Shown here: piece by piece, positions 357 through 39,299 of the stretch | How positions within the stretch are numbered: the first letter of the stretch is position 1 | How the letters are laid out: each line of letters opens with the position of its first letter | NCBI GenBank assembly: GCA_041645165.1 | Contig: JBAZQN010000001.1 | Coordinates: forward strand, 117,971-181,970 | DNA: 64,000 nucleotides | Direction of reading: 5' to 3' | Source of the DNA: Patescibacteria group bacterium | GTDB lineage: Bacteria; Patescibacteriota; Patescibacteriia; 2-02-FULL-49-11 | Notes under the pieces: model-generated | What the model saw: the letters and a program-made list of their open reading frames with translations, nothing else | What the model was told of the DNA's origin: nothing | Database searches by the model: none | Position numbers and translations under genes: made by a program

Positions 357-472
357 ATAGTAGCTAATTGTTCGTTCGTATAACATACCAAAAGTAGTCA
401 TTTATACGCCAACAGTTCGTATAATAACTAGTTATGTAAAATAGCCAGAAATTTCTTTATTACTTTTAAGAT

Positions 473-494
473 TTTTTTGGCAATTTATTTCGGG
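473..494 (+). promoter_or_regulatory. Conserved cassette 5' motif TTTTGGCAATTTATTT (copy 1)
   Basis: The same 14-16 nt motif recurs at 1332-1350, 2271-2289, 4147-4160 and 6629-6637, and inverted at 2058-2075 and 3021-3045; it is always between an attC-like site and the next start codon. Confidence 0.35.
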
Positions 495-549
495 TCGAAC
501 ATAGCTTATGATATGATTTAATCAGTTTAAGTAACTAACCAATACAATT

Positions 550-1128
550 ATGAACAGAAAAAATGTAATCACGATCCTAATCGTCGTAGTCGTTGTGCTT
601 GCTGGCACGACAATATACTTTACAATGACAAAAAATGCGGGTCAGCAACCAATCACAAATCAAACTACACAGCCTAATAGCAACGCAACTGCAACAATCC
701 CCACTGGTTGGAAAGTTTACCAAAATAAGAATTTTAAATTTGAATTTGCCTATCCTCAAAATTGGAATATAGGCGACTTAACTGCTACCACTAATAATTT
801 ATTAACGCTGGGTATGGGAGTTCCTGGTCTTGGCGATGACACCGCTTGGATTAATGTTGTATCTGAAAATGGTTTAGCTAAAGCGATAGATTTACATGTC
901 CAAAATTACGTCGAGGGAACAAAGATTGAAAAAGAACAAATATTTACACTCGACGGCATTGAAGGCAAGCTTATTTACTTGAATATAGGTGGGAATAGTC
1001 CTGATTTGGATAGATGGGTTTTTGTTAAGTATGATTCAAAGGTATACAATATTGGCATTACTTATGATGTCACACCATACGATGAAGAGTTCAATCAAAT
1101 CCTCTCGACATTTAAGTTCATAAAATAA
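550..1128 (+). CDS. Hypothetical secreted/membrane-anchored protein (N-terminal TM helix), cassette 1
   Basis: 192-aa ORF with N-terminal hydrophobic helix IVVVVVLAGTTIYF; no recognisable catalytic motif. Confidence 0.5.
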   Translation: MNRKNVITILIVVVVVLAGTTIYFTMTKNAGQQPITNQTTQPNSNATATIPTGWKVYQNKNFKFEFAYPQNWNIGDLTATTNNLLTLGMGVPGLGDDTAWINVVSENGLAKAIDLHVQNYVEGTKIEKEQIFTLDGIEGKLIYLNIGGNSPDLDRWVFVKYDSKVYNIGITYDVTPYDEEFNQILSTFKFIK

Positions 1129-1165
1129 ATTGCAAAAAATAAGGTAAAGAAATTTCTGGCTACAT

Positions 1166-1294
1166 CACATAACAGCGTGTATGCGGCGACAGCTTGCTCC
1201 GTACCTCCGCAAGCCTCCGCCCATATTTGCTGGCGGTGAATCGCTTCGCGATATTATACAGCCAGCAAACATCGCATACACGCGAACGTTATAC
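1166..1294 (+). repeat. attC-like site 1 (R'' cacATAACag / L'' gcgtgtatgcg ... L' cgcatacacgc / R' GTTATAC)
   Basis: Perfect 11-bp complementary L boxes at 1176-1186 and 1273-1283; flanking ATAAC and GTTAT cores. Confidence 0.5.
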
Positions 1295-1331
1295 GCCATA
1301 ATAAAAAGCCTCAAATACAATTAATTAATAA

Positions 1332-1350
1332 CTTTGGCAATTTATTTTTT
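1332..1350 (+). promoter_or_regulatory. Conserved cassette 5' motif cTTTGGCAATTTATTTTTT (copy 2)
   Basis: Near-identical to 473-494, including the downstream gggtcga motif. Confidence 0.35.
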
Positions 1351-1401
1351 AGGCGGGTCGAGATAACTTGTTTTAATATAATAATTAACTGAAACAAAAT
1401 T

Positions 1402-2055
1402 ATGAACAACAAAACAGAAACTACACTTATTATCATTAGTTTTATTCTCGTAGTTGCAAGTTTATTTTTGGCACCCTTGCTTTTTGGCATTATAGCAATC
1501 ATACTTTGTGTTGTCGCCTTGGTTAAAAACAGTAAAACCAACACTCTTTCAAATGGCAAAAAATGGTTAGCTTATATTTCTATAATATTAGCAATTATTA
1601 GCATGGCTTATGCTGTTCTAATAGTTAAAAACCAAGTTACTGGTCTTATTGATAATGCCAAACAAGAGCTTGATACGGCAGCTGTAAAATCACGTGATGC
1701 CAAAAGAATTGCCGACGCAAGAATATTAAATACCACCATTCAAATTTACGCCCTTGATACTGAAAAACTTCCTATCGCTAAAGACGAAAAAAATAATTTT
1801 CGACCGTTTAAACTGATAAAGGGATCGCCAGATTTTACTTCTCTTGAATCTGAAATAAAAGGTAACGATTCCTCGCAGTATATTACTGCCGATCCATCAG
1901 ACCCGGAAAGATATTATGAATACTTTAGTGACGGTAAAATCTATACTATCAAGGCCTATCTCGAACAAACGAATGTGGAGAACTGCAAAGAAGTAAAATC
2001 TGGCTATTGCGAATTCGAAATAAAAGGAGACTTGGCATCGGCACTAGGAGAATAA
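1402..2055 (+). CDS. Membrane protein with C-terminal pseudopilin/type IV pilin-like domain, cassette 2
   Basis: Three hydrophobic helices, then DAKRIADARILNTTIQIYALD, which resembles the PulG/T4-pilin-like motif; no canonical prepilin G|FTLIE cleavage site. Confidence 0.4.
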   Translation: MNNKTETTLIIISFILVVASLFLAPLLFGIIAIILCVVALVKNSKTNTLSNGKKWLAYISIILAIISMAYAVLIVKNQVTGLIDNAKQELDTAAVKSRDAKRIADARILNTTIQIYALDTEKLPIAKDEKNNFRPFKLIKGSPDFTSLESEIKGNDSSQYITADPSDPERYYEYFSDGKIYTIKAYLEQTNVENCKEVKSGYCEFEIKGDLASALGE

Positions 2056-2103
2056 ATTGCCAAAATTATTTTACATTAAGGAATAGAGGCTTTTTATGAC
2101 GGC

Positions 2104-2234
2104 GTATAACACGGGATAAGCGGTTCAGGGCAAATGCGATTTATTACTTACATTAATGAGTTGCATTTGCCCCTCACCCAAATTTTTACTACGTTTCACT
2201 CCGTAAAAACTTCGCTTATCCCGATACGTTATAT
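2104..2234 (+). repeat. attC-like site 2 (ATAAC-ac-GGGATAAGCG ... CGCTTATCCC-gatac-GTTATAT)
   Basis: Perfect 10-bp L boxes (2113-2122 / 2213-2222) plus inner stem gggcaaatgc/gcatttgccc. Confidence 0.55.
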
Positions 2235-2296
2235 GAAATAATCAAAATCTCTCTTATATTTTATTAAAAGATTTTTGGCAAATTATTTTTAACAAT

Positions 2297-2989
2297 ATGG
2301 AAAAAATTGAAAATCAACGGCCCTTTAATATACCAATAGAAAAAGGCATTAAAGGTGAAACCAAACAACTATACAAGTTTGTTGACAATGATAATTATGT
2401 AGTAAGATTTGCTCCCCTTCGATCATCGTCGAGAGATATTTCCACATCTGAACTTAGCCCAGAGGAAGCGGCCGATATGGGTATAAAACTATTTCGAGAA
2501 TTAAGAGATGGTTACAATCTTATAGTACCGGCCCAATTTGTTCGAGGAAAATGGAAGCAATATACCGAAGGAACATACACAATAGTTAACCGAATTGAAG
2601 GTAAAAGTCTTGAAGATATGTATTTTGATAGTCGCTCTGATTGTCTTGTCTCTAAACTTGATGATTTGTTTGAGTCACTCTTGATGTATGTAAATGATAA
2701 ATTTCATTCGGAAGATTATTTTTTATGGGATATATTTCGAAAGGAACAATATGTGTGGGGCAAGAAGATCGAAGATAATCGAGACCAAGGCGAACAAAAC
2801 AAAGATGAAGAGGATATATATTTGACTGATGTTGATATATTTGCTTTTCGTAAATCTAAACATATGCTTTATGCTGGGTTTCAAAATCTCCTTAACAATA
2901 TTAACACAATGGAACAAAGGTTGGATACTAAATTCGAAAAAACTAGGAAAAAACTCTCTGAAATTAGCAGTTTATTCCCAAGGATATAA
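2297..2989 (+). CDS. Hypothetical protein, cassette 3
   Basis: 230-aa ORF with no TM and no recognisable motif; preceded by the TTTTTGGCAAATTATTTTT motif. Confidence 0.45.
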   Translation: MEKIENQRPFNIPIEKGIKGETKQLYKFVDNDNYVVRFAPLRSSSRDISTSELSPEEAADMGIKLFRELRDGYNLIVPAQFVRGKWKQYTEGTYTIVNRIEGKSLEDMYFDSRSDCLVSKLDDLFESLLMYVNDKFHSEDYFLWDIFRKEQYVWGKKIEDNRDQGEQNKDEEDIYLTDVDIFAFRKSKHMLYAGFQNLLNNINTMEQRLDTKFEKTRKKLSEISSLFPRI

Positions 2990-3070
2990 AATTTTTTTTA
3001 GATAAATCACCCCATTAATAAAATAATTTGCCAAAAAGAATAATAAGGTAGAGAGATTTTTGATTACATC

Positions 3071-3265
3071 ACATAACACGGGATGAGCGGTTCTGGGCTG
3101 GCGCGATTTGTTTAATAATAATGAGTGCGCCAGCCCCTCACCCATATTCGCTTCCCTTTGGTTTTAAGTTCATCAACTATTGGTGAATTTAAAACGATTA
3201 AGAAGCAAAAACAATTTAACCAACCAAATCGGGAAGCGAACATCGCTTATCCCGAAACGTTATGC
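3071..3265 (+). repeat. attC-like site 3 (ATAAC-ac-GGGATGAGCG ... CGCTTATCCC-gaaac-GTTATGC), long form with three nested stems
   Basis: L boxes 3080-3089/3244-3253 (1 mismatch); inner stems gggctggcgc/gcgccagccc and ttcgcttccc/gggaagcgaa. Confidence 0.5.
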
Positions 3266-3291
3266 AAAATAATAAAAACACCCTTAATAAC

Positions 3292-3915
3292 ATGACTTAC
3301 GCAAAAACTCAGATATTTTATGTTCATGGAGGAAATACGTTTAGAAACAAACGTGAATATTTGCATTTTTTAAAGATACGAAATCCGTCTATTGAAAAAA
3401 AGTTCGCATGGAACGATAATTATCTTGATGACAAGATAGGCAAACAATTTCATATCATTAGACCCCGCATGCCTCGGCAAGATGGTGCAACATTCGCTGA
3501 ATGGGCGATACATTTTGAACGGTTTTTCCCGAAGCTAAAAAATAACTTAATTCTCATCGACCAGTCTCTTGGCGGCATATTTTTAGCCAAGTACTTGTCC
3601 GAGCATAAATTTCCGAAAAAGATACTGGCTGCTTATCTAGTGTGCCCGCCGTTTGATAACACCTTGCCATCAGAAACACTGGCTGGCGGCTTCAAACTCA
3701 AATTAGACTTATCGCTTCTTGAAAAAAATTGCAAAAAGTTGACCTTGATATTTTCCAAAAACGATGAGGTAGTGCCAGTGTCTCATGCCAAAAAATATGC
3801 CGCCAAGTTAAAAAATGCAAATATTCTCGTCTATAAGCACATTAAAGGTCATTTTCAAATATCTGAGTTTCCAGAGATTGTAGCAATGATTAAGTCTGAT
3901 ATTCGGAAACGGTAG
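3292..3915 (+). CDS. Alpha/beta-fold serine hydrolase (YdeN/RBBP9-like), cassette 4
   Basis: Nucleophile-elbow-like LIDQSLGG and a C-terminal His (HIKGHFQ). The track start at 3262 lies inside the attC core GTTATGC, so the second Met at 3292 (MTYAKTQIFYVHGG) is preferred. Confidence 0.55.
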   Translation: MTYAKTQIFYVHGGNTFRNKREYLHFLKIRNPSIEKKFAWNDNYLDDKIGKQFHIIRPRMPRQDGATFAEWAIHFERFFPKLKNNLILIDQSLGGIFLAKYLSEHKFPKKILAAYLVCPPFDNTLPSETLAGGFKLKLDLSLLEKNCKKLTLIFSKNDEVVPVSHAKKYAAKLKNANILVYKHIKGHFQISEFPEIVAMIKSDIRKR

Positions 3916-3931
3916 GTGTTTTTATTACATC

Positions 3932-4131
3932 GCACAACACCGAGTATGCGGCTCAAAAGTTTTGCCTTATTGGAAACTAAATTAAGGAACGCAAAACCTT
4001 TTCGACCCAAATTCGCTTTTCTCTGTTAGGTGGTAATCTAAGGAAAAGTGCGATAAAATAGTATTAAGATAATTCAAATAATTAACCAATAAATCCGAAA
4101 AGCAAACTTCGCATACTCGGAAACGTTAGAC
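3932..4131 (+). repeat. attC-like site 4 (gCACAACac-CGAGTATGCG ... CGCATACTCG-gaaac-GTTAGAC)
   Basis: Perfect 10-bp L boxes 3941-3950/4110-4119; R' GTTAGAC fits the canonical GTTRRRY. Confidence 0.5.
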
Positions 4132-4193
4132 GAAATTGAAAAATGGCAATTTTCGGAAGATTTATATAATTCTTCAACCAAAATTTAACAAAT

Positions 4194-4982
4194 ATGTTCC
4201 AACTCTTTTTATTCATACTAATGGGTGTTGCGGCTGCTTCAATTGTAACCGGCTGGCAAGGATACAAGGACTCTCCTTGGGAAAATTTTGTATTTCGTAA
4301 ATTTGTAAGAAGTTATCTCGTCGCTTCAGTGGCTGGATTAGTGTTTTATTATCTAGATAATTTCAAAATATTAAGTTTTGATAATTTAGGGGTGCTACTT
4401 CTTACGATTCTTAGTGTTGAAAGGGCTACTGGCGAAGTGTATAAAGGGTTCATCAGAAAACAATCTCATCCAGAATATGTCAAGCTTTTTGAGAGATTAC
4501 ATATTCAATTTAAATCCCCTGCAATTAGAGTCATTACAGGAATTTTATTTGCAGCTGTCCTTACTGGAGTAGTCCTCATTTTACTAACTCAGTTTATCTC
4601 TCGTATTCTACTGTTACCTAGTATCACGGCAGGATTAATTGTTGGATTAATTGGCGGGACGCTAAGTGCGGCTGGCGGGGCTATAAAGGATTCTCAATTT
4701 GAGGGTTTCAGGTTTAAAAAATTTATACGCAGCCCTATTGTCGGTATGCTTGGCGGTGTGATTCTTGTTCGTTTTACCAACAATCCACTTTTGTTATTAC
4801 TAAACGTTACTGGATTTGAAAGAGTAGTAGTAGAGTTATACAAGACTTTTATTAAACGACAAGTGCGAGGCATTTTTGAAAGTCAAGAACCTAACTATTT
4901 ATATTGGTTGAAGAATAGATGGATTTTTATTGTTTTATACGGTATTGGCGTATCTATACTAACCATATCCTTCTTTGCATAA
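4194..4982 (+). CDS. Polytopic membrane protein (about 8 TM), cassette 5
   Basis: 262-aa ORF dominated by hydrophobic helices; two-fold internal repeat architecture. Confidence 0.5.
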   Translation: MFQLFLFILMGVAAASIVTGWQGYKDSPWENFVFRKFVRSYLVASVAGLVFYYLDNFKILSFDNLGVLLLTILSVERATGEVYKGFIRKQSHPEYVKLFERLHIQFKSPAIRVITGILFAAVLTGVVLILLTQFISRILLLPSITAGLIVGLIGGTLSAAGGAIKDSQFEGFRFKKFIRSPIVGMLGGVILVRFTNNPLLLLLNVTGFERVVVELYKTFIKRQVRGIFESQEPNYLYWLKNRWIFIVLYGIGVSILTISFFA

Positions 4983-5062
4983 TAATAGAAGCAGAACAGA
5001 AAATTGCCATTTTTCAACTCAAGGGGACGCTGCGCTTTCGTTCCCGTTGGTCGCTCACCCTC

Positions 5063-5146
5063 GCCTAACAGCGGATATGAGGTTCGGCTCTTGCAGAGCC
5101 TCAACACAAATTGCTTCGCAACTTCTCATATCCGCATACGTTATAT
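5063..5146 (+). repeat. attC-like site 5 (GCCTAAC-AGCGGATATGAG ... CTCATATCCGC-atac-GTTATAT), short form
   Basis: Canonical RYYYAAC inverse core GCCTAAC; perfect 11-bp L boxes 5070-5081/5125-5135; central hairpin ggctcttgcagagcc. Confidence 0.6.
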
Positions 5147-5209
5147 TCAGTTTTATTTCTGCCCTCTAGAATAGATAAATTTATATTTTCTTTTCTCTAA
5201 GCCGATCAT

Positions 5210-5731
5210 ATGAAGTCATACATAGTAAAAAAATCTAAAATTCATGGTAACGGATTATTCGCTAATAAAAATTTCAAGAAAGGCGAACTAATTTTTGGTG
5301 TTGATATATCAAAATTACCGAAACTTGAACCGAACGCTAAGCTTTCTGAAGAAGAAGATCTTCATGTTGATTATGCAGGACTGGGAAAATACATTGTTGG
5401 TACTCGCCCTTATGCGTATATAAACCACTCTTGCGATCCAAATGTTTTGGTAAAGCATGAGACCATTGCAAGAAGTAAATTTTTTACCATGAGAGATATT
5501 AAAAAAGGAGAGCAATTCACTTATGATTATGGTGTTAATGCAATGGATCAAATTGACAAAGAATTATGGAGTACAAAATGCAAGTGTGGTTCAAAGAATT
5601 GCAGAGGCACATTATCAACATGCTTTTTGAAGCAGCCGATTGAGATACAAAGAAAATATTACAAATATCTTCCTCAATCATTGAAAAGAAAATATAAAAA
5701 TAAATTCTTAAAGTTACGGGGGCAAAAATAA
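5210..5731 (+). CDS. SET-domain protein-lysine N-methyltransferase with post-SET Cys cluster, cassette 6
   Basis: GNGLFA, YINHSCDPN, GEQFTYDYG and CKCGSKNCRG motifs are all present in SET-domain order. Confidence 0.8.
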   Translation: MKSYIVKKSKIHGNGLFANKNFKKGELIFGVDISKLPKLEPNAKLSEEEDLHVDYAGLGKYIVGTRPYAYINHSCDPNVLVKHETIARSKFFTMRDIKKGEQFTYDYGVNAMDQIDKELWSTKCKCGSKNCRGTLSTCFLKQPIEIQRKYYKYLPQSLKRKYKNKFLKLRGQK

Positions 5732-5783
5732 AACTCTGAAATTTTCCTTTGGAACGTTGCACTAAAATTCTGTCCTGCGGAGA

Positions 5784-5872
5784 ATATAACACGCATTAAC
5801 CAACTCCGCTCGGTTGCGCCTCGCTCCGTCCAAATCAGCTTCGCCGACTTCGGTTAATGCGATACGTTATAT
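5784..5872 (+). repeat. attC-like site 6 (ATAAC-ac-GCATTAACC ... GGTTAATGC-gatac-GTTATAT), short form
   Basis: Perfect 9-bp L boxes 5793-5801/5852-5860. Confidence 0.55.
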
Positions 5873-5899
5873 GAAATATTTTTAATCGGTTTCTAAAAT

Positions 5900-6412
5900 A
5901 TGCATCTACTTATTAGGAAATTACAAAACCACGACGCAGAAATAATTTCTTCTGCCTTTAATGAAATCAGGTGGAATAAGCCAGCTTCACAATATAAACA
6001 TTATTTTACTGAACAAAAAGTCGGGAAGCGATTAGTGTTGGTGGCTTTTGTAAATAAAAAATTTGTTGGCTATTTAACTATTGTTTGGAAGTCAAATTAT
6101 CCACCATTCAAAAATGGTAACATTCCTGAAGTAGTAGACTTAAATGTATTGCCAAAATATCAACGACAAAAAATTGGCACTAAACTAATGGACGAGGCAG
6201 AAAAAATTATATCTAAAAAATCCAAAGTTGTGGGTATCGGAGTTGGTCTAGCACCCGGATATAATGCGGCACAACGAATGTATGTGCGTCGTGGTTTTAT
6301 ACCTGATGGACTGGGGGTTGAATATAATGAGAAGTCAGTTAAATATGGCCAAAAAATAGTTGTTGATGATAGTCTAACTTTACATTTTACAAAACGATTG
6401 AATAACCGATAA
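5900..6412 (+). CDS. GNAT family N-acetyltransferase, cassette 7
   Basis: Acetyl-CoA binding motif A-like VLPKYQRQKIGTKLM and GNAT-like size (170 aa). Confidence 0.65.
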   Translation: MHLLIRKLQNHDAEIISSAFNEIRWNKPASQYKHYFTEQKVGKRLVLVAFVNKKFVGYLTIVWKSNYPPFKNGNIPEVVDLNVLPKYQRQKIGTKLMDEAEKIISKKSKVVGIGVGLAPGYNAAQRMYVRRGFIPDGLGVEYNEKSVKYGQKIVVDDSLTLHFTKRLNNR

Positions 6413-6423
6413 AAAATACCTCA

Positions 6424-6617
6424 TATAACAAAGAGTATACGGTTCAGGATTTTTTCATCTATAATATTAATAAGGAGTAAAAAATTTCTTCACTCAAATT
6501 CGTTTTTTTTAGTCCATGCAAATAACAAGATATGTGCATCAAAATAGTTCATTTTAAATAACAAAGTTAATCAATTAAAGTCGGAAAATAAACTTCGTTT
6601 ACTGCGATAGGTTAAGT
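6424..6617 (+). repeat. attC-like site 7 (degenerate: ATAAC-aa-AGAGTATACGG ... CGTTTACT-gcgatag-GTTAAGT)
   Basis: ATAAC and GTTAAGT cores are present; L boxes pair with one mismatch; weakest of the seven. Confidence 0.35.
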
Positions 6618-6637
6618 GAAATAAAATACAGGCAATT

Positions 6638-7027
6638 ATGAACAAAACCCAAGCACTTAAATTACTTTTAATTTTAGGCGCGCTATATTATCTCGTAGGA
6701 GCGACCGTTCACTTTTTCGGTCTTACTCTTTTTCCGTTTTATGACGGTGTGCTTTATCAGCCGTATCATGATACCGTTATAGCTTTAGTCGCGATAGTTC
6801 TCAGTCTTCTCTTGTTATCTATTGCCAGAGACCCGGTAAAAAATGTTGATTCACTCAATGTAATTATAATCGGCGGGATTATTGCCATTATATTCAGCAT
6901 TGGAATTATTTTGAAAATAGATTTTGTTCAGCTTGGTGCGCCAGGGAAAAGAAATCAAACGATAGTTGAAATGATTCTACTGATAATTTATGTTAGTTCA
7001 TTAATATATCTTAAGCCCAAAAAGTGA
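6638..7027 (+). CDS. Small membrane protein (4 TM), last cassette
   Basis: 129-aa hydrophobic ORF; start codon immediately follows GGCAATT. Confidence 0.5.
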   Translation: MNKTQALKLLLILGALYYLVGATVHFFGLTLFPFYDGVLYQPYHDTVIALVAIVLSLLLLSIARDPVKNVDSLNVIIIGGIIAIIFSIGIILKIDFVQLGAPGKRNQTIVEMILLIIYVSSLIYLKPKK

Positions 7028-7032
7028 ATTAA

Positions 7033-7965
7033 GTGGATATTTTAAAAAATCGTGTTATGGGTAATAAAAGTTTAAAAATGAACATTTCACTGACTGATTT
7101 TTATCTTTTGCATAGCGACAAGTTATATGGCGACCCTCTATTTAAAAAGCAAATTATAGGTCATCAGCGATTTTTGAAATTTGACAATATATTAAGTGAA
7201 AGAGCGGTATTTGACAAAATCCTCATTCAGTTTCTTGAAGAGGCAGAATTAACCCTATCCCTCATAAATGATTTGGATCTCACCGGAAAGGATGTTTTAG
7301 AGATTGGGGGAGGGCTCGGATTCGTATATGGATATCTTCAGAAAGCAGGTATCAATATATATGGAATAGAGCCCTCAGATTCAGGTTTTGACGGATATTT
7401 TAATGCCGCGATGCAATTATTCAAAATAATAGATGTTGATGAATCACATTTTTATCCATTTTCAGCAAAAGAATGTATAAAATTAAACAAGCAATTTGAC
7501 ATCATATTCTCAAATAATGTCCTGGAGCACATCCCAGAGCTCGATGAGTCCTTTTCAGCCATGAAGAGCGTCCTTGATCCTTATGGATTGATGGTGCATA
7601 ACACGGTGAATTATCTTATACCGTATGAGCCGCATTTTAAGATGATGCTTTTCCCTTTTTATCCAAAACTCACCGTGCTTTTCAAGCCAAGCCTAAGGAG
7701 CTCATCTCTTTGGAACGGCCTGAACTTTATTACCACTGGTAAATTGAAACGTATATGCAAAATTAAAAATCTCAGTATTGAGTTTAAAAAAGATGCATTG
7801 TACAATACCTTATTAAGATTGGAGAACGATCCGATGTTTGCGCAGAGGCAAAAATATTTCATCCCGCTATATAGAGTTTTGAAATTTACAGGTTTAATGA
7901 AAATTCTTGTTAAAATTCCCATAGCCCTCACCACCCCTATTACTTTCACAATAAGAAGAAAATAA
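7033..7965 (+). CDS. Class I SAM-dependent methyltransferase
   Basis: Motif I VLEIGGGLGFVYG and acidic motif II; 6 nt after the previous ORF, with no attC-like site after it, so probably array-terminal or a two-gene cassette. Confidence 0.6.
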   Translation: MDILKNRVMGNKSLKMNISLTDFYLLHSDKLYGDPLFKKQIIGHQRFLKFDNILSERAVFDKILIQFLEEAELTLSLINDLDLTGKDVLEIGGGLGFVYGYLQKAGINIYGIEPSDSGFDGYFNAAMQLFKIIDVDESHFYPFSAKECIKLNKQFDIIFSNNVLEHIPELDESFSAMKSVLDPYGLMVHNTVNYLIPYEPHFKMMLFPFYPKLTVLFKPSLRSSSLWNGLNFITTGKLKRICKIKNLSIEFKKDALYNTLLRLENDPMFAQRQKYFIPLYRVLKFTGLMKILVKIPIALTTPITFTIRRK

Positions 7966-19891: not shown

Positions 19892-20590
19892 ATGGACCCT
19901 AAGGCCTTCTATGACTCCGTGTATGCAAGCAAAGGGGACCGCGCCATGCGCCCGCGATGGGTATATGAACGGTGGTTCAGGTTATTAGGCAATACACAAA
20001 CTTACCAATCATTGCTTGATGTCGGGTGCGGCACGGGGTTGTTTTTGCAAGTGGCTACGGAGCAGGGCTTGGCTGCCACAGGCCTTGATTTATCGGATGC
20101 CGCGGTCGCGCTCTCAAAGAAAAATTCGCCCCACTCCACAGTGGTGCAGGGGAGCGGGGAACGTCTGCCCTTTCTCGATAAGCAGTTTGACTATGTGTGT
20201 TGTCTGGGGAGTTTGGAGCACTACAGCGATCCTCTAAAGGGGCTTCGTGAATTGGTGAGGGTTGCGAAAGACGATGCGAAATTTCTTATTATACTGCCGA
20301 ATGACAATTACCTTTTTTGGAAGTTAAAAAAAATAAAAAAAGGAACTGCGCAGAGGGAATTTGAAGTATTAAAAAATTTTGATGGATGGAAGCGTTTTTT
20401 GGATGAAGGGGGATTGGAAATACTGCACATATATCAGGATAAATATCCTTCAGAGGAGCTGCGCATATTTCAATTTAAAAATCCCTACAAGATACTGCGG
20501 CGAGTGCTCTATAAAATGATTTGGCTTATGATGCCGTTGAAGTACACGTATCAATTTGTTTTTATTTTACAGAAAAATTTTTATACGTGA
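19892..20590 (+). CDS. Class I SAM-dependent methyltransferase
   Basis: Motif I LLDVGCGTGLF; motif II/III spacing. Confidence 0.65.
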   Translation: MDPKAFYDSVYASKGDRAMRPRWVYERWFRLLGNTQTYQSLLDVGCGTGLFLQVATEQGLAATGLDLSDAAVALSKKNSPHSTVVQGSGERLPFLDKQFDYVCCLGSLEHYSDPLKGLRELVRVAKDDAKFLIILPNDNYLFWKLKKIKKGTAQREFEVLKNFDGWKRFLDEGGLEILHIYQDKYPSEELRIFQFKNPYKILRRVLYKMIWLMMPLKYTYQFVFILQKNFYT

Positions 20591-21545
20591 AACGTATATA
20601 AATATGAAAAAATATATTAGAAAATTATTAAGTTTTATTATCTTATTATTCAATAAAACACATTGGATCGTTAGCCTCATCTTATGGCCATTGGCAAAAA
20701 GAGGATTGGGTCAAAATTACCTCGAAGTCGTACAAATCGGTGATGGCATTAAATTGAAGGTGTATTCTGATATGTATGATATGGTGAATAAAGTATTGAT
20801 GTTTTATTCTGATTTTGTGACTTATGCGTGGGAGCCTGTAACCACCAGATTATTTCAAAAATTAATTAAAGGGAAGAAGTGTATTGTAATAGCCGGCGCC
20901 CATTTGGGATATTATCCCCTCATTGCAGCTCGTTTTAATATCAATGCAATAATTTATGCGTTTGAGCCTGTTACATATATATATGATCGCTTTATACAAA
21001 ATATAGAACTAAATCATTTTCTAAATATTCGAGCGGAACCACAAGCGCTATCCAATCAAAATAGCGAAACTGACATCATCAAAGCGGACGGCGGTTCCAC
21101 AATCATCCTGTCCCAATATCCATCCTTAAATAAAGGAAAAGAAAAGTGCCATTGCGTTACTATTGATGATTATTTTAACGATAAAGATGAGAAACCAGAT
21201 TTTATGCTGTTGGATGTTGAAGGTAGTGAATACCGAGCATTAGCGGGAGCAGAACAAGTGCTTAAAGTATTTCACCCAGATATTATATTCGAAATATATT
21301 TAAAAGATACTGCACAAGCCGATACTATTGTTCTACCTGCTCAATTGTTAGACAGGCATGGCTATGAATTATATGTAATTCATGAACAAAACGAACCTAT
21401 GCTTATAGGAGAGAATTTTCCCATTGTACTATCACGGCTGCGAGTTGACGATGTCCGACATCTCAAGGGTGCGTACGTTAATATTTTAGCCACTCGTGAT
21501 CGTAAGAAGATAAAACTGATGTTTCCAAGTATTTCTGGCATATAA
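20556..21545 (+). CDS. FkbM-family methyltransferase (start probably at Met 20604)
   Basis: AGAHLGYY ... FEP ... LLDVEGSE pattern of Methyltransf_21/FkbM. Confidence 0.5.
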   Translation: MFLFYRKIFIRETYINMKKYIRKLLSFIILLFNKTHWIVSLILWPLAKRGLGQNYLEVVQIGDGIKLKVYSDMYDMVNKVLMFYSDFVTYAWEPVTTRLFQKLIKGKKCIVIAGAHLGYYPLIAARFNINAIIYAFEPVTYIYDRFIQNIELNHFLNIRAEPQALSNQNSETDIIKADGGSTIILSQYPSLNKGKEKCHCVTIDDYFNDKDEKPDFMLLDVEGSEYRALAGAEQVLKVFHPDIIFEIYLKDTAQADTIVLPAQLLDRHGYELYVIHEQNEPMLIGENFPIVLSRLRVDDVRHLKGAYVNILATRDRKKIKLMFPSISGI

Positions 21546-21636
21546 TACGAGCGGGAATATACAATGTTAACCATACTATTCGTATGAGAAGAGTCATTAC
21601 ACGGGATTATTCTGTAGGTATGGCAAAAGTATTTAT

Positions 21637-22887
21637 GTGAATAAAAATTGTTTATTCCCTATAGTATATAGAGAATTTATTTCCATGAAGTTAATTTATT
21701 TTGCCAATATACGCCTGCCTACGGAAAAAGCGTATGGCATACAGATAATGAAAATGTGTGATGCTTTTTCACACGCAGGCGCGGAAGTGACGCTGGTGAT
21801 CCCCACGCGCGCGAATCCCGGATTTAACGGTGTCAATCCTTTTGACTATTATGGGGTGAAACGATCTTTTGCGTTACAACGCATTAAAACGTTTGATCCT
21901 TGGTGGCTGATACGATTGCCGCAAGGCATCTATATTAAGGTTCAAGGATTTCTTTTTATATTCAAATTATATTTATGGTTCTTTATTCACAATATATATT
22001 CAAAATACGATGTCGCGTATACCCGTGATGAGTATCTCTTGCCGCTCCTGCATAAATTTTTTCCGCGTGTGGTGTGGGAAGCGCACAATTTACCAAGTCA
22101 TCCGCAGCGCTATATCAAAGCATGGCGAAAATGCCGGTACATTGTCGCAATTACCAAGGGGCTTAAGGACGCATTAGTGAAACAAGGCGTACACCCTGAT
22201 CACATAATGGTGGCGCCGGATGGAGTAGACCTTGAAAAGTTCACCCGGTCATCCGACCGGGTGCCCAGTCGAATGACTGGGCAAGTTCAACCCTTCGACT
22301 CGGCTCAGGGTGACAGGGATGAGTTACGGAGGCAATTAGGTTTACCGACAGACAAAAAGATTATCCTTTATAGCGGCCATTTATATGAACGGAAAGGCGC
22401 GCAAATGCTCGCTGATGCGATCCGTTTGCTCGATGATCGCTTTCTTGCGGTAATTGTGGGCGGCACACCTCATGATATCGAGAGATTTGCGATACGCAAT
22501 ATGGATACATTCCGTATAAAAATTGTCGGTTATCAGCCCCATGCGCTCATCCCGCGTTATCTCAATGCGGCAGACGCGCTGGTATTGCCGAATTCTGCAA
22601 AAAACGATGATGCAAAATTATTCACTTCACCCATGAAATTATTCGAATACATGACCGCGCACGCCCCTCTTATTGCGTCCCGCGTGCCTGCGCTGCAGGA
22701 AATATTAAATGACCATAATGCAGTTTTTTTTAATCCGGATGATCCGCGCGATCTCGCCAATGTTATTCAAAAGGTAATTGATAACCCAGATCTCTATAAT
22801 GCATATTGGCAGCAGGCGAATAAAGACGTCATGCAGTATACATGGCTTAAGCGGGCACAGCGTATCTTCACTACAATCATCAAATAA
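21637..22887 (+). CDS. Glycosyltransferase GT4 carrying an in-frame palindromic insertion (start probably Met 21685)
   Basis: GT4 C-domain (NSAKNDDAKLFTSPMKLFEYMTAHAPLIAS); a 25-aa low-complexity insert FTRSSDRVPSRMTGQVQPFDSAQGDRDEL is encoded by the double-hairpin element at 22240-22286. Confidence 0.65.
   Translation: MNKNCLFPIVYREFISMKLIYFANIRLPTEKAYGIQIMKMCDAFSHAGAEVTLVIPTRANPGFNGVNPFDYYGVKRSFALQRIKTFDPWWLIRLPQGIYIKVQGFLFIFKLYLWFFIHNIYSKYDVAYTRDEYLLPLLHKFFPRVVWEAHNLPSHPQRYIKAWRKCRYIVAITKGLKDALVKQGVHPDHIMVAPDGVDLEKFTRSSDRVPSRMTGQVQPFDSAQGDRDELRRQLGLPTDKKIILYSGHLYERKGAQMLADAIRLLDDRFLAVIVGGTPHDIERFAIRNMDTFRIKIVGYQPHALIPRYLNAADALVLPNSAKNDDAKLFTSPMKLFEYMTAHAPLIASRVPALQEILNDHNAVFFNPDDPRDLANVIQKVIDNPDLYNAYWQQANKDVMQYTWLKRAQRIFTTIIK
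22240..22286 (+). repeat. Palindromic in-frame insertion element, copy A (cacccggtcatccgaccgggtg + gcccagtcgaatgactgggc)
   Basis: Two adjacent perfect hairpins inside the coding sequence; homologous to the copy in gltX (63259-63306) with compensatory stem changes. Confidence 0.7.
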
Positions 22888-23497: not shown

Positions 23498-24235
23498 ATG
23501 GCATCAGTGACTCCTCTCACGTCTGAATTATCGATAGTGATCCTCTGTTACCGAGCAGGAGACGCAGTCCGTGATTTCATTTCACGTACCATCGTAATCC
23601 TTGCAGAAGGCGGTATTCCAGACTATGAGCTTGTATTGGTAGGCAATTTTATGGAAGGCTCTGGAGACCGCACTCCACGCATCGTAGCAGAATTAGCGGC
23701 GACCTATCCGAAAGTGGTATATCTGGCAGAACCAAAACAGGGAATGATGGGATGGGATATGAGAAAAGGTTTGGAGAAAGCGAGAGGCGCCTATCTTGCG
23801 GTCATTGACGGTGATGGGCAAATGCCGATTGCGGATTTAGTAAAAGTATATACAAAAATTAAAAATGAGCGACTTGATATGGTTAAAACATATCGTCTGC
23901 AAAGAGGAGATAGTATTTTAAGAAAAACAATTTCTTTTATTTATAATTTATTTTTTCATGCGCTTTTCCCTGGGTTAAATGTACGGGATATCAACGCGAA
24001 ACCGAAAATATTCACTCGTGCGGTCTATGAACGCATGTGGCTGGAATCAAATGACTGGTTTATTGACGCAGAAATTATGATCGAAGCACGGCGTCTGCAC
24101 TTGCGTATAGGAGAAATACCCACAGTTTTTTTGGGACTTACGGGACGCAGGTCATTTGTGAAAATGAGAGCGATAAATGAATTTTTAATAAATTTAATAC
24201 GCTATAGGATAAGAGAATTTCGGCGTACAAAATAA
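23498..24235 (+). CDS. GT2 polyprenyl-phosphate glycosyltransferase (DPM1/GtrB-like)
   Basis: N-terminal GT2 fold; DGDGQ motif; C-terminal amphipathic tail. Confidence 0.65.
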   Translation: MASVTPLTSELSIVILCYRAGDAVRDFISRTIVILAEGGIPDYELVLVGNFMEGSGDRTPRIVAELAATYPKVVYLAEPKQGMMGWDMRKGLEKARGAYLAVIDGDGQMPIADLVKVYTKIKNERLDMVKTYRLQRGDSILRKTISFIYNLFFHALFPGLNVRDINAKPKIFTRAVYERMWLESNDWFIDAEIMIEARRLHLRIGEIPTVFLGLTGRRSFVKMRAINEFLINLIRYRIREFRRTK

Positions 24236-24237
24236 GA

Positions 24238-26061
24238 ATGAAATATAGTATGCAGGATACATTTATGCCGCAAATAAAAAAAGTGTGCATATTTTTATAT
24301 ACTAGTTGGTTGTCTCGTTTTTTTAAACCCCTCTTTATTTTTTGTCGGGCGCACGCGGGCGCATTGTTCCTCTCTTTATTCATCGGAATGATAACGATAG
24401 CGCCACAGCTTATTTTCCAGTCAACGCTAGGGGAGCGCTACCAAGGTATTTATTTGGGCGGTACCGATAATGAAGACTATTATGCGGGAAGGGTGCGGGA
24501 AGCGTTCGACGGGCACTATGCTATAGGCAACGCATTTCTTTATGAAGGCCGTGACGCACTTTTTTTGCAGCCACCTTTGGGTGAATTATTATTTTTACCC
24601 CTTGGCGCTCTGTTCTCTTTTAATCCAGTGACGACTCTCTTCTGGGGCTCGCGTTTTGTTTTTCCCTTATTATTAACGTTCATTATATATTATTTCATTT
24701 ATCTGCTTTTTTCGTCTAAGTTATTAGCGCTTGCCGTAAGCAGCAGTATCGTGCTTGCTTCGCAATTTGTATATTTTCCTAAACAATTATTTAATTTAAT
24801 TCCCACGCAGTTTGGTGCTTTTTCTATTGATAGTTTTCTTACCTATTCCCGCCCTGTGCTTCCCCAAACAAGCACGCTATTTTTTTTCCTATTTTTATTA
24901 TTATTTTTCTTGCTCCTTAACAAGCGTACGATGGTATGGCATTGTTATCCGATAGGCATACTGTATGGGTTGAGTATCTATCTCTATCTTTATAACTGGA
25001 TTTTCCTTACTGTTTTTTGCATTATTATTATAGGGTTTTACGTCTGGTGGAAAGATAAGGAAATGGTAAAGGCATTGATGCGATTTTTTTTCTGCGGGAT
25101 AATTATCACCCTGCCCTTCTGGTTTGTCATGTTAAAAAATGCGAATTCACCATTTTGGGTTGAGACGGCGGCACGATATAATATATATGGGTCCCATGAC
25201 TTCGTATTCAGCAAACTGTTGGCTATAAGCCTTATAGGATGGCTTGCCGCGAATTACCGGAAATTGAAAGATCCTGCAGTCCACCTGATACTCGCCCTTA
25301 TATTAAGCGGATTTGTGGTAATTAATCAGCAAATCATCACTGGGAGAGTTTTATTTTACGGGCATTTTCATTGGTATTTCAACGTTCCAATTTTTATTAT
25401 AGCCATGCTCTATTTAGCGCATATGCTTAGTGTACGGGTAGCTCCTCTGCTGAATAAAATAATGGTGATAATTATTCTTAGCGTGAGCATCGGTTCCGCC
25501 ACTATGATTCAAGCGAAAAGCCTGGAAACGAGAGCCCAAGGCTATATGGCGCAGCAGGATTGGGGTGGCGTATATCTGTGGCTGGATAAAAATCTCCCTT
25601 TGGAGTCGGTTATCTTAAGCAATAATAGAAGTTTTTCAAATGCGATTCCCACCTATACTAAACATTATCCCTATGACGGGATATATGCGCATTTGTTTTT
25701 GGCTGATCCGGAACGATTAAAGTATAATATATTTATTTATCTTTGGTTGCGCGGCCTGAAAGCGGACAAAGCGGGCGAATATTTTTCACACACACCGCAT
25801 GAAATCATTGGATACCTTGGTGCGGCAAGGGTGAGGCGCGTCTATGGATGCACCGTCTGCGTGCCCGCAGATATTTTACACGGCTTTGCGGATGAATATG
25901 TCCGTTTTATCGAGCAACGACGCTATGAGCAACTTGCGCAATATAAACTAGACATATTTGCATGGGATAGGCGCGAGGATGGCGCAGTGCCGGAATATTT
26001 ACTCACCAGGTTTACATTCGTTACAAGGGTGAATAATTTTGACATTTATCGCATTCATTAA
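24238..26061 (+). CDS. Large polytopic membrane protein, probable GT-C-type glycosyltransferase partner of the upstream GtrB-like enzyme
   Basis: 607 aa, more than 10 TM; translationally coupled to the GT2 gene (3-nt gap). Confidence 0.45.
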   Translation: MKYSMQDTFMPQIKKVCIFLYTSWLSRFFKPLFIFCRAHAGALFLSLFIGMITIAPQLIFQSTLGERYQGIYLGGTDNEDYYAGRVREAFDGHYAIGNAFLYEGRDALFLQPPLGELLFLPLGALFSFNPVTTLFWGSRFVFPLLLTFIIYYFIYLLFSSKLLALAVSSSIVLASQFVYFPKQLFNLIPTQFGAFSIDSFLTYSRPVLPQTSTLFFFLFLLLFFLLLNKRTMVWHCYPIGILYGLSIYLYLYNWIFLTVFCIIIIGFYVWWKDKEMVKALMRFFFCGIIITLPFWFVMLKNANSPFWVETAARYNIYGSHDFVFSKLLAISLIGWLAANYRKLKDPAVHLILALILSGFVVINQQIITGRVLFYGHFHWYFNVPIFIIAMLYLAHMLSVRVAPLLNKIMVIIILSVSIGSATMIQAKSLETRAQGYMAQQDWGGVYLWLDKNLPLESVILSNNRSFSNAIPTYTKHYPYDGIYAHLFLADPERLKYNIFIYLWLRGLKADKAGEYFSHTPHEIIGYLGAARVRRVYGCTVCVPADILHGFADEYVRFIEQRRYEQLAQYKLDIFAWDRREDGAVPEYLLTRFTFVTRVNNFDIYRIH

Positions 26062-26083
26062 CTATATAACCTAAATACCTATT

Positions 26084-27667
26084 ATGACTCAAGATGCGCA
26101 TCAGAAAAAAACAGCGATTATCATAGGCGCAGGCCCAGCAGGCTTAACTGTTGCATGGGAATTGCTGACAAGAACTGATATAACTCCCATAATCCTTGAA
26201 AAAAGCAATATGATCGGCGGATTAGCGCGTTCTATTGATTATAAAGGTAACCGTATGGATATCGGGCCGCATCGTTTTTTTTCAAAGTCCGATCGTGTCA
26301 TGCGCTGGTGGCTTGGGCATTTGCCGTTACAGCATGTGGACAATATGGAGTTTATCCGATCTTATCAAACGAAACTGGGCATCACGAATCAAAATCAGCG
26401 CCTTGATCCCGAGACAACTGATTTAGTTATGCTTTTGCGCAATCGGAAGACGAGAATATATTTTTTAATGGATCTGTTCCCTTATCCGATTGCGTTAAAT
26501 ATGGTTATGCTTCTAAGGCTCGGTTTTTATAAAATTTTGCGCATCGGCATCAGTTATGTATACAGTATATTATTTCCCATAAAACCAATGAAAAATTTGG
26601 AGGATTTTTATATTAACCGTTTTGGAAAGGAACTCTATTTAACTTTTTTTAAATCATATACAGAGAAATTATGGGGATTATCATGCCGCGAGATCAGTGC
26701 GGAGTGGGGAGCGCAGCGCGTAAAAGGCCTTTCGGTGGGGAATGCGCTGAAAGATTTTATTATGAAACTGATACATAAAAATAAAAGCATAGACCAAAAA
26801 AAGACTGAAACGTCGCTCATTGAATGGTTTTTGTATCCTAAGCGCGGTGCGGGACAAATGTGGGAAACAGTAGCGGATAAAATACGGCAAAGGGGAGGTG
26901 AGATTATCATGAATTTTAATGTCGATAAAATTTATCAAAAGGAGCATACTGTAATAGCAATTGGTGGTCATAGTCTCATTGAAGGACAAAAAAAAGAATG
27001 GCAAGGAGATTACTTTTTTTCGACAATGCCGGTGCAAGAATTGACAAAATCATTTATGGGAGAAGTCGATCAGGAGGTAAGAGAAATCAGTGATGGGCTG
27101 CGTTATCGTGATATAATTCTTATTGGTTTATTATTGAAACGCCTATTATTAACTGATAAAGAATATCCCCACGAACTAATACGTGACAATTGGTTATATA
27201 TTCAGGAACCCAATGTGCAGGTGGCGAGGATACAAATATGCAATAATATGAGTCCTTATCTCGTGGCAGCCCCGGGGCTCGTATGGATAGGGGCAGAATA
27301 TTTTTGTCAGGTTGGCGACAATATGTGGGAGCGCGATGATGCTTCTTTAGTGCAAATGGCGCAAAAGGAATTGGAAAAAATTGGGATAATCGCAGAAAGA
27401 GATACAGTTGACGGGGTGGTCATACGCCAGGAGAAGGCGTACCCGGTTTATTTCGGCGCATATCAGCAGTTTGAAACGGTGAGGAAATTTTATGACCAAT
27501 TCGACAACCTATTTTTGCTGGGCCGCAATGGCATGCATAAATATAATAATCAAGATCACTCTATGCTCACCGCCATGGTAGCAGTGGACAATATCATTCA
27601 TCATCGCCAAAACAAGGAAAATATTTGGGCGGTGAATACGGAGAAAGAGTATCATGAGGAAAAGTAA
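26084..27667 (+). CDS. FAD/NAD(P)-binding oxidoreductase (amine-oxidase / UDP-galactopyranose-mutase superfamily)
   Basis: Dinucleotide-binding [17 protein letters not shown] at N-terminus; C-terminal [11 protein letters not shown] flavoprotein motif. Confidence 0.55.
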
Positions 27668-39289: not shown

Positions 39290-39299
39290 TATTGATACT

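Follow-up and report, generated by a model that had tools for sequence, protein, structure and literature searches.

An integron-like cassette array in a Patescibacteria genome, with relatives adjoining a tyrosine recombinase that lacks the additional domain of IntI

Introduction

In class 1 integrons and in the chromosomal integrons of Vibrio, a divergently oriented tyrosine recombinase gene and an adjacent attI site with repeated boxes are combined with co-oriented cassettes of a single open reading frame (ORF) each. The cassettes end in an imperfect palindrome, the attC site, with AAC...GTT termini, a C before the GTT and a variable top; the cassette boundary is G↓TT (the arrow marks the crossover point), and the sites are alike while the cargo is diverse. 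By definition, the integrase of an integron (IntI) carries an additional domain around patch III. The other features are shared by the array described here, in which the recombinase gene is missing, and by its relatives. The array occupies positions 371–6617 of a stretch of 64,000 nucleotides (nt) from a Patescibacteria group bacterium (GenBank assembly GCA_041645165.1, contig JBAZQN010000001.1, positions 117,971–181,970 of the forward strand), which is termed the window and to which all coordinates refer. Judged from its sequence, this region very probably represents the platform of cassettes belonging to an integron-like system of site-specific recombination, the integrase gene of which is missing.

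In IntegronFinder, two or more attC sites separated by less than 4 kb and devoid of an integrase over this distance are classified as a CALIN (PMC9024848). The geometry of the window fits, the sites being closely spaced in this sense and an integrase being absent nearby, but its array keeps an attI-like site at the head, and its sites are missed by a proxy covariance model of the canonical type. For archaeal integrons, 539 attCs and only six IntIs were described (Ghaly et al., 2022, PMC9668308). Similar to the arrays considered here, they stem from metagenome-assembled genomes (MAGs) of DPANN and methanogen lineages in similar habitats and are mostly devoid of an integrase; in contrast, their detection relied on the canonical attC model, and all six IntIs carry the additional domain. 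The IntegronFinder 2 survey covered RefSeq genomes, and the phyla treated here are unmentioned in it. In full-text searches, which left the subscription literature outside, no description of integrons in Patescibacteria or the candidate phyla radiation, or of cassette arrays with an integrase devoid of this domain, was found.

Xer recombinases use one double-stranded dif site of 28 bp per replicon, and their gene is not linked to the site. In the pdif modules of Acinetobacter plasmids, gene modules are bounded by Xer-type sites and re-assorted between replicons. The pdif sites are short, double-stranded and of alternating orientation, and they are not known to be associated with a dedicated adjacent recombinase, an attI site or a hairpin. 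In a census of tyrosine recombinases, enzymes of candidate phyla that are related to Xer formed a separate subgroup, "Cand"; by analogy with other class-specific subgroups, they were suggested to compensate for Xer, and a link to cassettes was not reported (PMC8138268). The recombinase encoded beside the relatives of the present array probably belongs to the same family.

Results

Layout of the array

Seven hairpin elements (e1 to e7) were identified at positions 1167–6617, one behind each of seven ORFs on the + strand. They share a common plan, which consists of YAAC-A, a variable arm of 10 nt, GG(Y)TC, a loop, RAC-WT-C, the complementary arm, RWAC and GTTA. Within the loops, which are 34–150 nt long, a CAWAT motif is present together with one or two inner hairpins. 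With at most one mismatch, the 3' module AACWTC-N10-RWACGTTA is present eight times in the 64 kb, versus 0.14 expected; seven of these matches belong to the array, and the eighth (21457) is a chance occurrence within a coding sequence. The initial annotation, which was made from the sequence alone, had reported seven such elements, and all of them could be located. Its reading as an integron-type array also agrees with the co-oriented single-ORF units, each of which ends in an imperfect palindrome with AAC...GTT termini.

Seven complete cassettes extend from one G↓TT to the next and comprise a leader, one ORF, a trailer and an imperfect attC-like palindrome of 80–200 nt. An additional, eighth junction without a hairpin upstream was found at 431. 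The features are given below; site spans have the R'' 7-mer and the R' 7-mer as their two ends, fold z values (top/bottom strand) refer to folding as DNA against mononucleotide shuffles, and R1 is a covariance model of 27 short elements from other genomes that contains no sequence of the window. Identifiers beginning with L denote loci used for comparison.

371–434, + strand: attI-like site, with box 1 TTCGTATA at 375–382, inverted TTATACG at 402–408 and box 2 TTCGTATA at 416–423; box 2 is followed by ATAACTA and the crossover G↓TTA at 431
432–1288, + strand: cassette 1, with type-1 leader 431–549, ORF 550–1128 (PsbP_2-like by Pfam, 192 aa), trailer 1129–1173 and site e1; inverted repeats 431–459/1145–1173 (90%) and 465–490/1123–1148
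1167–1294, + strand: attC-like site e1, fold z −7.5/−6.6; R1 42.7 bits, E 4e-7
1289–2228, + strand: cassette 2, with ORF 1402–2055 (217 aa, N-terminal membrane segment, weak sub-threshold DUF4190) and site e2; inverted repeats 1288–1312/2086–2110 (92%) and 1327–1346/2051–2070 (95%)
2104–2234, + strand: attC-like site e2, fold z −6.3/−7.8; R1 47.5 bits
2229–3259, + strand: cassette 3, with ORF 2297–2989 (230 aa, no family) and site e3; inverted repeats 2228–2265/3039–3077 and 2272–2289/3020–3037 (100%)
3071–3265, + strand: attC-like site e3, long-loop class, one arm mismatch, fold z −8.5/−8.0; found in the strict module scan
3260–4125, + strand: cassette 4, with ORF 3292–3915 (Ser_hydrolase, alpha/beta fold; Pfam E 4e-9) and site e4; inverted repeat 3259–3282/3915–3938 (83%)
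3932–4131, + strand: attC-like site e4, long-loop class, fold z −4.2/−5.7; found in the exact arm scan
4126–5140, + strand: cassette 5, with ORF 4194–4982 (membrane protein of 262 aa, no family) and site e5; inverted repeat 4136–4154/4999–5017 (100%)
5063–5146, + strand: attC-like site e5, short class, fold z −5.6/−4.3; R1 82.7 bits, E 4e-16
5141–5866, + strand: cassette 6, with ORF 5210–5731 (SET domain, Pfam E 1.4e-15) and site e6; inverted repeats 5149–5188/5696–5735 and 5180–5195/5683–5698
5784–5872, + strand: attC-like site e6, short class, fold z −2.1/−4.4; R1 39.0 bits, E 2e-6
5867–6611, + strand: cassette 7, with ORF 5900–6412 (GNAT acetyltransferase; Pfam Acetyltransf_1, E 4e-11) and site e7; inverted repeat 5866–5891/6404–6429 (88%)
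6423–6617, + strand: attC-like site e7, decayed, fold z 0.0/+1.4; R1 18.4 bits, at 6418–6513 only

The GTT-to-GTT distances (726–1031 bp) and the GC content (0.33–0.37 in the array vs. 0.42–0.51 beyond 8 kb) correspond to the cassette lengths of 0.73–1.03 kb and the lower GC content given in the initial annotation. Its count of eight to nine cassettes was too high, as the two ORFs following e7 lack a site. Pfam matches were obtained to PsbP_2, Ser_hydrolase, SET and GNAT, and four ORFs belong to no family; hence, the SET protein, the acetyltransferase and the alpha/beta hydrolase proposed as cargo were recovered, but the ORF thought to be pilin-like (1402–2055) matched only DUF4190, weakly and below the threshold. 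A long inverted repeat encloses each ORF; its start coincides exactly with GTTAT and its end exactly with the ATAAC of the element that follows. In all seven cassettes, the start is linked by inverted repeats of 25–55 nt to the stretch immediately preceding the cassette's own AAC. These start-to-trailer repeats, the junction at 431 and the attI-like site had been missed by the initial annotation.

No member of the tyrosine recombinase family is encoded anywhere in the 64-kb window, in agreement with the reported lack of intI. An Rfam search of the window yielded no match at the gathering thresholds and, at a permissive threshold, only a chance match to CRISPR-DR26 (E 0.51). Scans for sigma-70 and terminator consensus sequences gave results not above chance and are uninformative in this AT-rich DNA.

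Folding and covariation of the sites

The fold z values of e1 to e6, which fold strongly, range from −2.1 to −8.5 and are weaker than −4 only in the top strand of e6. In the bottom strand, a closing AAC/GTT helix of 5–6 bp is followed by a 3-nt bulge and a long stem. The unpaired bases (RWAC opposite a single A, and a WT bulge) are all located on the L'-R' arm, and the spacer is asymmetric (1 vs. 4 nt). The R box comprises 12 conserved nt (ACATC-RYM-TAAC / GTTA-KRY-GAAAT); conservation of the L box (..G.ATAT..) is partial. According to the initial annotation, the arms always pair, but e3 contains one mismatch, and in the decayed e7, about six of ten arm positions pair; this element retains a conserved 5' half, and its 3' module deviates at one position (ATAG-GTTA).

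Related sites were searched in one genome per GTDB species with the pattern TAACA-N10-GGYTC...AACWTC-N10-RWACGTTA, which does not demand complementarity. At least 120 genome contigs matched. The arms pair in most of them, and many harbor same-strand arrays with a spacing of 0.5–1 kb. About half of the matched contigs are labelled Patescibacteria; the others, among the matches listed, are assigned to DPANN or methanogen lineages, Omnitrophota, WOR-3, "Gammaproteobacteria" and more. For 85 distinct arm pairs, Watson–Crick pairing reached 75–96% per position over ten positions, versus a mean of 14–37% in shifted registers, and several positions displayed three or four pair types. RNAalifold recovered the stem from 27 short elements, nine of the 12 pairs being compensatory; 91% of the positions counted were paired versus 24–42% after sliding, and the covariation score was 0.332 versus 0.079 in shuffles. 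On the basis of this comparison, the elements form a family of sites with a covarying stem, which is conserved in structure and not in sequence, as had been proposed in the initial annotation.

In the window, R1 detected e5 (82.7 bits), e2, e1 and e6 (39–48 bits) and part of e7; the long-loop elements e3, with its 145-nt loop, and e4 gave partial matches only. Outside the array, R1 had no significant match within the 64 kb. The complementarity between a cassette start and its own trailer was also observed in related loci, where the start and the 45 nt before the own AAC reached a score of at least 12 in 42% of the pairs; in the controls, the value was 5% when both flanks of the same element were compared and 2% when pairs were random. 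Outside the R box of 12 nt, the inverted repeats are specific to the individual cassette.

Comparison with canonical attC sites

R1 found no attC site in three class 1 integrons. A second covariance model (R2), a small proxy for canonical attC sites built from ten class 1 attCs and distinct from the IntegronFinder model, recovered the held-out attC of arr-3 (22.9 bits, E 0.001) and none of e1 to e7 at E values up to 10. Taken literally, failure of an attC covariance model on all seven elements is what the initial annotation had named as speaking against its interpretation. The failure of R2 refutes membership in the canonical family, not the way in which the array works.

The structure of the sites differs from the canonical one as well. 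The initial annotation had noted extrahelical bases on one arm; they are indeed confined to one arm, but this is the L'-R' arm, whereas those of canonical sites are on the R''-L'' arm by definition (PMC2727003). When the canonical attC of aadA1 was folded here, C16 and A23 bulged on the R''-L'' arm. The spacer of 1 versus 4 nt contrasts with the roughly symmetric, unpaired central spacer of canonical sites. Further differences are the R box of 12 nt, which is conserved in sequence, the extension of the stem in about 42% of the tested cassettes and in seven of seven in the window, and a leader with a conserved −10-like element. On three tested defining features, the array is outside the canonical integron family.

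The recombinase beside related arrays

Among 120 genome loci of at most 8 kb each, 22 encode a tyrosine recombinase of about 270 aa that is closer to IntI1 than to XerD (the IntI1 query was 100% identical to the annotated intI1). The gene is located upstream of the array on the opposite strand in all 22 loci and also in 15 metagenome loci. In a reverse test, seven homologs were picked solely for their long contigs, and all seven had sites on the expected strand and side. R1 detected these sites in six loci, whereas those of L125 were recovered solely with a less stringent hairpin search. The neighboring genes in these loci include cassette-like cargo, for example toxin–antitoxin pairs and Fic and HNH genes. 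The recombinase gene is divergent and upstream of the array in 44 of 44 recombinase-carrying loci. In the loci compared, the geometry of recombinase, attI and array is therefore fixed. On the array side of L125 (6192–6794, 8496–9200), L122 (4165–6552) and L250 (364–843), an IS200/IS605 Y1 transposase gene and HNH endonucleases were observed; the same loci also contain an HpaII-like restriction–modification system with Vsr and a ParE/RHH toxin–antitoxin pair.

At E ≤ 1e-30, at least 6,300 of 8,000 candidates tested are homologs of this recombinase; their public names are XerD or "tyrosine recombinase/integron integrase". Most of them are located on contigs shorter than 2 kb. Since these repeats fragment assemblies, arrays of this kind are probably under-represented in MAGs. 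The Logan assembly of the present sequence (L001, a contig of 9.6 kb) breaks within e5, its position 1 corresponding to position 5116 of the window.

The best match in the PDB is VchIntIA (2a3v, E 7e-43), aligned in two stretches that skip residues 178–240, followed by archaeal XerA. The NCBIfam model of integron integrases (TIGR02249) gave 196–234 bits against a cutoff of 265, with profile positions of about 180–230 skipped, and the XerA model (NF040815) gave 218–232 bits around its cutoff of 220, which four of six proteins passed while two were just below. In the alignment, about 40 residues of the IntI additional domain are absent; the catalytic residues R-K-HxxR-H-Y and the C-terminal SPL motif are present. 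The spacing from KDR to HxLRH is 55–59 aa in 37 of 38 proteins versus 100–104 aa in IntI1. By this comparison, the additional domain is absent from all 44 recombinases adjoining the arrays. Thus, the enzyme shares with integron integrases the SPL motif and, in VchIntIA, its best solved relative, but it differs in lacking the additional domain and the I2 helix; the IntI with its specific domain that the initial annotation had expected is not what is encoded beside such arrays. With Xer and XerA, it has in common its size of about 270 aa without an extra domain, the NF040815 scores around the cutoff and the second-best PDB match. Unlike Xer genes, its gene is linked in 44 of 44 loci to a dedicated attI and to hairpin sites of 80–200 nt that form arrays. 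Two recombinase genes of Gracilibacteria (L013 2733–3560 and L050 6504–7355) contain an in-frame TGA at conserved glycines (ERG*KLT), which is consistent with genetic code 25.

The attI-like site

In L092, L044 and L113, boxes of the type TTCG(Y)ATA adjoin the recombinase gene at about −56 and −15 before the GTTA of the first cassette, and L050 contains these boxes plus two more. In general, the first-cassette GTTA of integrase-adjacent loci is preceded by TTCGTATA(G/A)AAACGA, a second box is usually found about 56 nt upstream, and an inverted copy is located between the boxes. The window has TTCGTATA exactly at −56 and −15 before GTTA and the inverted TTATACG in between; positions 371–434 were aligned with 11 metagenome loci. 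R1 gave a weak match to the attI-like site (373–442), which was not significant. Two forms occur: the window, L092 and L044 show the direct-repeat form (TTCGTATA twice), and some attI-like sites are TAAC...GTTA palindromes (TAACTCGTTTTTATG-N15-CATAAAAACGAGTTA; L126 9884–9925, L122 9893–9953, L123 719–760). Because an attI-like site is retained at 371–434, the array is probably not a plain CALIN, the alternative offered by the initial annotation.

Cassette boundaries and re-assortment

L062 contains three copies of one cassette, two of which are 99.7% identical over 600 nt. The identity starts at (C)GTTA and includes the downstream hairpin, and the upstream hairpins are unrelated. The start of the commonest cassette type, which is represented by cassette 1 (type 1, see below), was found behind at least 41 different 3' ends of attC sites and behind at least 31 attI-like sites. 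Furthermore, arrays start with attI-GTTA-ORF and finish with a hairpin. From the L062 duplicates, the type-1 start joins and the array ends, it follows that the unit is G↓TT...ORF...AAC-hairpin-G, in the canonical order. In the loci compared, cassettes are therefore bounded at G↓TT, as the initial annotation had assumed, and are re-assorted. An order in which the hairpin travels with the downstream ORF (crossover ATAA↓C) was considered in view of the mirrored bulges, but the L062 duplicates rule it out, as do the ends of the arrays and their junctions with attI. A search for presence/absence pairs of cassettes among 240 loci revealed only one unrelated indel of 122 nt.

The non-coding parts of the window cassettes are 75–97% identical to arrays of other organisms, while the ORFs are not shared. 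Site e2 is 97.6% identical to L051 3109–3234 (an Uhrbacteria MAG), region 5010–5143 shows 94% identity to L042, and region 6417–6500 shows 89% identity to L033, L009 and L056. A 43-nt insert between the trailer repeat of cassette 5 and R'' (5018–5060) is also found in L042 and L024. Among the loci compared, essentially no homologs of the cargo were detected, so that cargo is not what links the arrays.

A cassette chassis with exchanged ORFs

A type-1 chassis can be defined by the cassette 1 leader; it was found in more than 119 metagenome contigs (L128–L246) and in L024, L034, L041, L042, L062 and L072. The cassette 1 leader is 82–88% identical to cassette leaders in L024, L034, L041, L042 and L062 and 76% identical to that in L072. 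The proteins encoded by 92 cassettes with type-1 leader and trailer fall into 63 clusters without detectable mutual similarity. The ORF starts 113–122 nt after GTTA, and its TAA is located 49–56 nt before the end of R''; the information content collapses at the ATG and is regained at the TAA. The trailer (52 nt) is the reverse complement of about the first 55 nt of the 119-nt leader, and the rest of the leader contains a conserved TGnTATAAT (−10-like). The description of the cassettes as promoter-poor is doubtful in view of this element in the leader of cassette 1. Many, not all, type-1 ORFs encode an N-terminal M-x-x-(P)E-M-G-G-x-x-P-E (e.g., L034, L042, L062, L140, L163 and L200). Judging from these alignments, the ORFs of the chassis appear to be swapped exactly from ATG to TAA, and we offer no mechanism for such a precise replacement.

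Several other observations concern the chassis. Other type-1 ORFs, which encode membrane or PsbP-like proteins, lack this N-terminal peptide. In L139 and L213, a cassette of 212 nt has the type-1 leader and trailer about 40 nt apart and no real ORF, and may be an "empty" cassette. A conserved TTGGCA motif of the leaders could be a −35 box in cassette 5 (4143–4170: ATGGCA, 16 nt, TATAAT). TTGCCA in the trailers is the inverted TTGGCA and part of the leader/trailer repeat.

Flanks of the array

Two features adjoin the array:

12–356, + strand: 3' end of a GDP-mannose-4,6-dehydratase/epimerase-like gene (C-terminal part of Pfam GDP_Man_Dehyd, E 3.6e-9)
6612–7965, + strand: low-GC tail (0.33–0.34) behind the last site, starting with a proper R' flank GTTAAGTGAAAT (junction at 6611)

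The dehydratase-like gene fills the place that the divergent recombinase gene occupies in complete loci; its stop codon (354–356) lies 19 nt before box 1 of the attI-like site. The tail contains ORFs 6638–7027 (129 aa, membrane) and 7057–7965 (Methyltransf_23 by Pfam). Neither is followed by an attC-like site, and R1 had no match in 6612–7965, so that the tail may represent what remains of a cassette or, alternatively, the original flank distal to attI. The sequence ATTAAGTGGATAT at 7028–7040 resembles the junction GTTAAGTGAAAT at 6611. Further stretches of low GC content (0.36–0.42) are present at 20000–22000, 24000–29000 and 39000–40000 inside a glycosyltransferase-rich cell-surface locus, in which no hairpin sites were detected.

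Discussion

The integron-type interpretation of the array is right with respect to its architecture and probably also with respect to its function. The array is integron-like, is not a canonical integron and is probably not a plain CALIN either. By analogy with integrons, the following mode of action is proposed. The recombinase would bind the 12-bp R box and the semi-conserved L box, which would come together only in the folded site. There, a distance of 6–7 bp would separate the two boxes on the R''-L'' strand, and RWA would bulge from the opposite strand; this spacing matches the distance from the TTCGTATA box to TTA in attI. In the duplex, the boxes would be 2–3 bp further apart. Since the spacing fits attI in the folded form and not in the duplex, we assume that the enzyme recombines the folded site with double-stranded attI. 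Strand exchange at G↓TT with double-stranded attI would result in insertion, and with a neighboring site in excision of the cassette as a circle. In the excised circle, the cassette start would pair with its own trailer and extend the stem by 25–55 bp beyond the R box. Recombination would proceed as in integrons, but the site would be recognized without the I2 helix. Use of a folded single strand and the choice of strand are predictions, and the present array may still be capable of mobilization in trans.

It was considered whether the array is simply the remnant of a canonical integron (CALIN). In this case, a standard IntI with the additional domain would act in trans on ordinary attC sites, and the small recombinase would be a bystander. 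The AAC...GTT termini, the C before GTT, the co-oriented single-ORF cassettes and the layout as a whole are canonical, and IntI1 was shown to recombine diverse archaeal attCs (PMC9668308). Nevertheless, we regard this explanation as very unlikely, because the additional domain is lacking in every one of the 44 adjoining recombinases, the attI-like boxes are located directly upstream of the gene for this domain-less enzyme, the bulges are on the opposite arm, and R2 recovers the arr-3 attC but zero of the seven elements. Even less credible is an origin as hairpins of the repetitive extragenic palindromic (REP) or terminator type, or as elements similar to miniature inverted-repeat transposable elements (MITEs), which would flank small genes without any mobility of cassettes. 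Such an origin would account for palindromic, intergenic elements and for ORFs flanked by inverted repeats that start with GTTAT and end with ATAAC. REP-like or terminator repeats, a possibility already raised in the initial annotation, or bacterial interspersed mosaic elements would be expected throughout the genome in intergenic regions beside core genes. No copies were detected in the other 56 kb of the window, and elsewhere the copies are clustered in arrays. The elements are 75–97% identical across many lineages while the ORFs differ, they keep a constant arrangement relative to attI and a dedicated recombinase, duplicated units begin at GTTA and extend across the downstream hairpin, and for one cassette start, at least 41 different upstream sites were counted. 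With regard to MITEs or insertion sequences, the repeats are cassette-specific, there are no family-wide terminal repeats beyond the 12-nt R box, and no target-site duplications were seen at the junctions examined.

A more serious alternative, though still an improbable one, are double-stranded modules of the Xer/dif type, similar to pdif modules or to integrative mobile elements exploiting Xer (IMEX), in which two-strand exchange would take place on the 3' half of the site and the palindrome would serve another use, e.g. termination. The enzyme is of Xer size and passes or nearly passes the XerA model. The attI can be read as a core site (TTCGTATA, 7–8 bp, TTAT...), and the L' arm (TTC-GCATAY) resembles the left arm of attI. 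In addition, the R' flank TTATGTGAAAT resembles the XerD arm of the E. coli dif site, TTATGTTAAAT; this likeness would fit an Xer-like ancestry. The stem covariation over ten variable positions and the conserved R''/R' pairing, however, show selection for intramolecular pairing. As inferred from the spacing, the boxes in the duplex are about 2–3 bp further apart than in attI, and only the fold with RWA bulged out restores 6–7 bp. Termination receives no support from the terminator scan, which was not above chance. Discrete, re-assorted gene modules are common to both systems, but the present sites are co-oriented hairpins associated with an attI and a dedicated recombinase, whereas pdif sites alternate in orientation.

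Several points weigh against an integron-like system acting on folded sites. Recombination by this enzyme family is a prediction, as is the activity of any of its members. In characterized integrons, recombination of attC sites is held to depend on the additional domain (PMC8138268, PMC7790495), and an enzyme without it might act on double-stranded sites only. The extra bases are on the arm opposite to the canonical one, so that the analogy to strand choice in integrons fails, and neither R1 nor R2 detects the sites of the other family. As there is no recombinase gene in the 64 kb and e7 is decayed, activity on the array in the window is likewise predicted. The labels outside Patescibacteria may reflect mis-binning of short MAG contigs, and because such contigs are open to mis-binning, the taxonomic breadth is not relied on here.

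The integron-like system may be part of a larger picture, in which we place about as much belief as doubt when all of its parts are taken together. In this picture, a very large, hitherto undescribed integron lineage exists in Patescibacteria and in organisms sharing their habitats. Its integrase would never have had, or would have lost, the domain held indispensable for the recombination of hairpin sites, the asymmetry of its sites would be mirrored, and promoter-bearing palindromic chassis would receive unrelated ORFs from start to stop codon. If this is true, a dedicated and widespread recombinase without the additional domain would challenge the view that this domain enables the recombination of folded attC sites, and the domain-less enzymes may be an ancestral or an alternative solution. 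Standard integron searches need the additional domain and a canonical attC model, and owing to this reliance, platforms of the kind described here are probably missed or labelled as orphan arrays; gene flow in communities of Patescibacteria and DPANN may consequently be underestimated. A chassis with at least 63 unrelated ORFs bears on the long-standing question of cassette origin and would offer, for the first time, access at the sequence level to the way in which integron cassettes arise.

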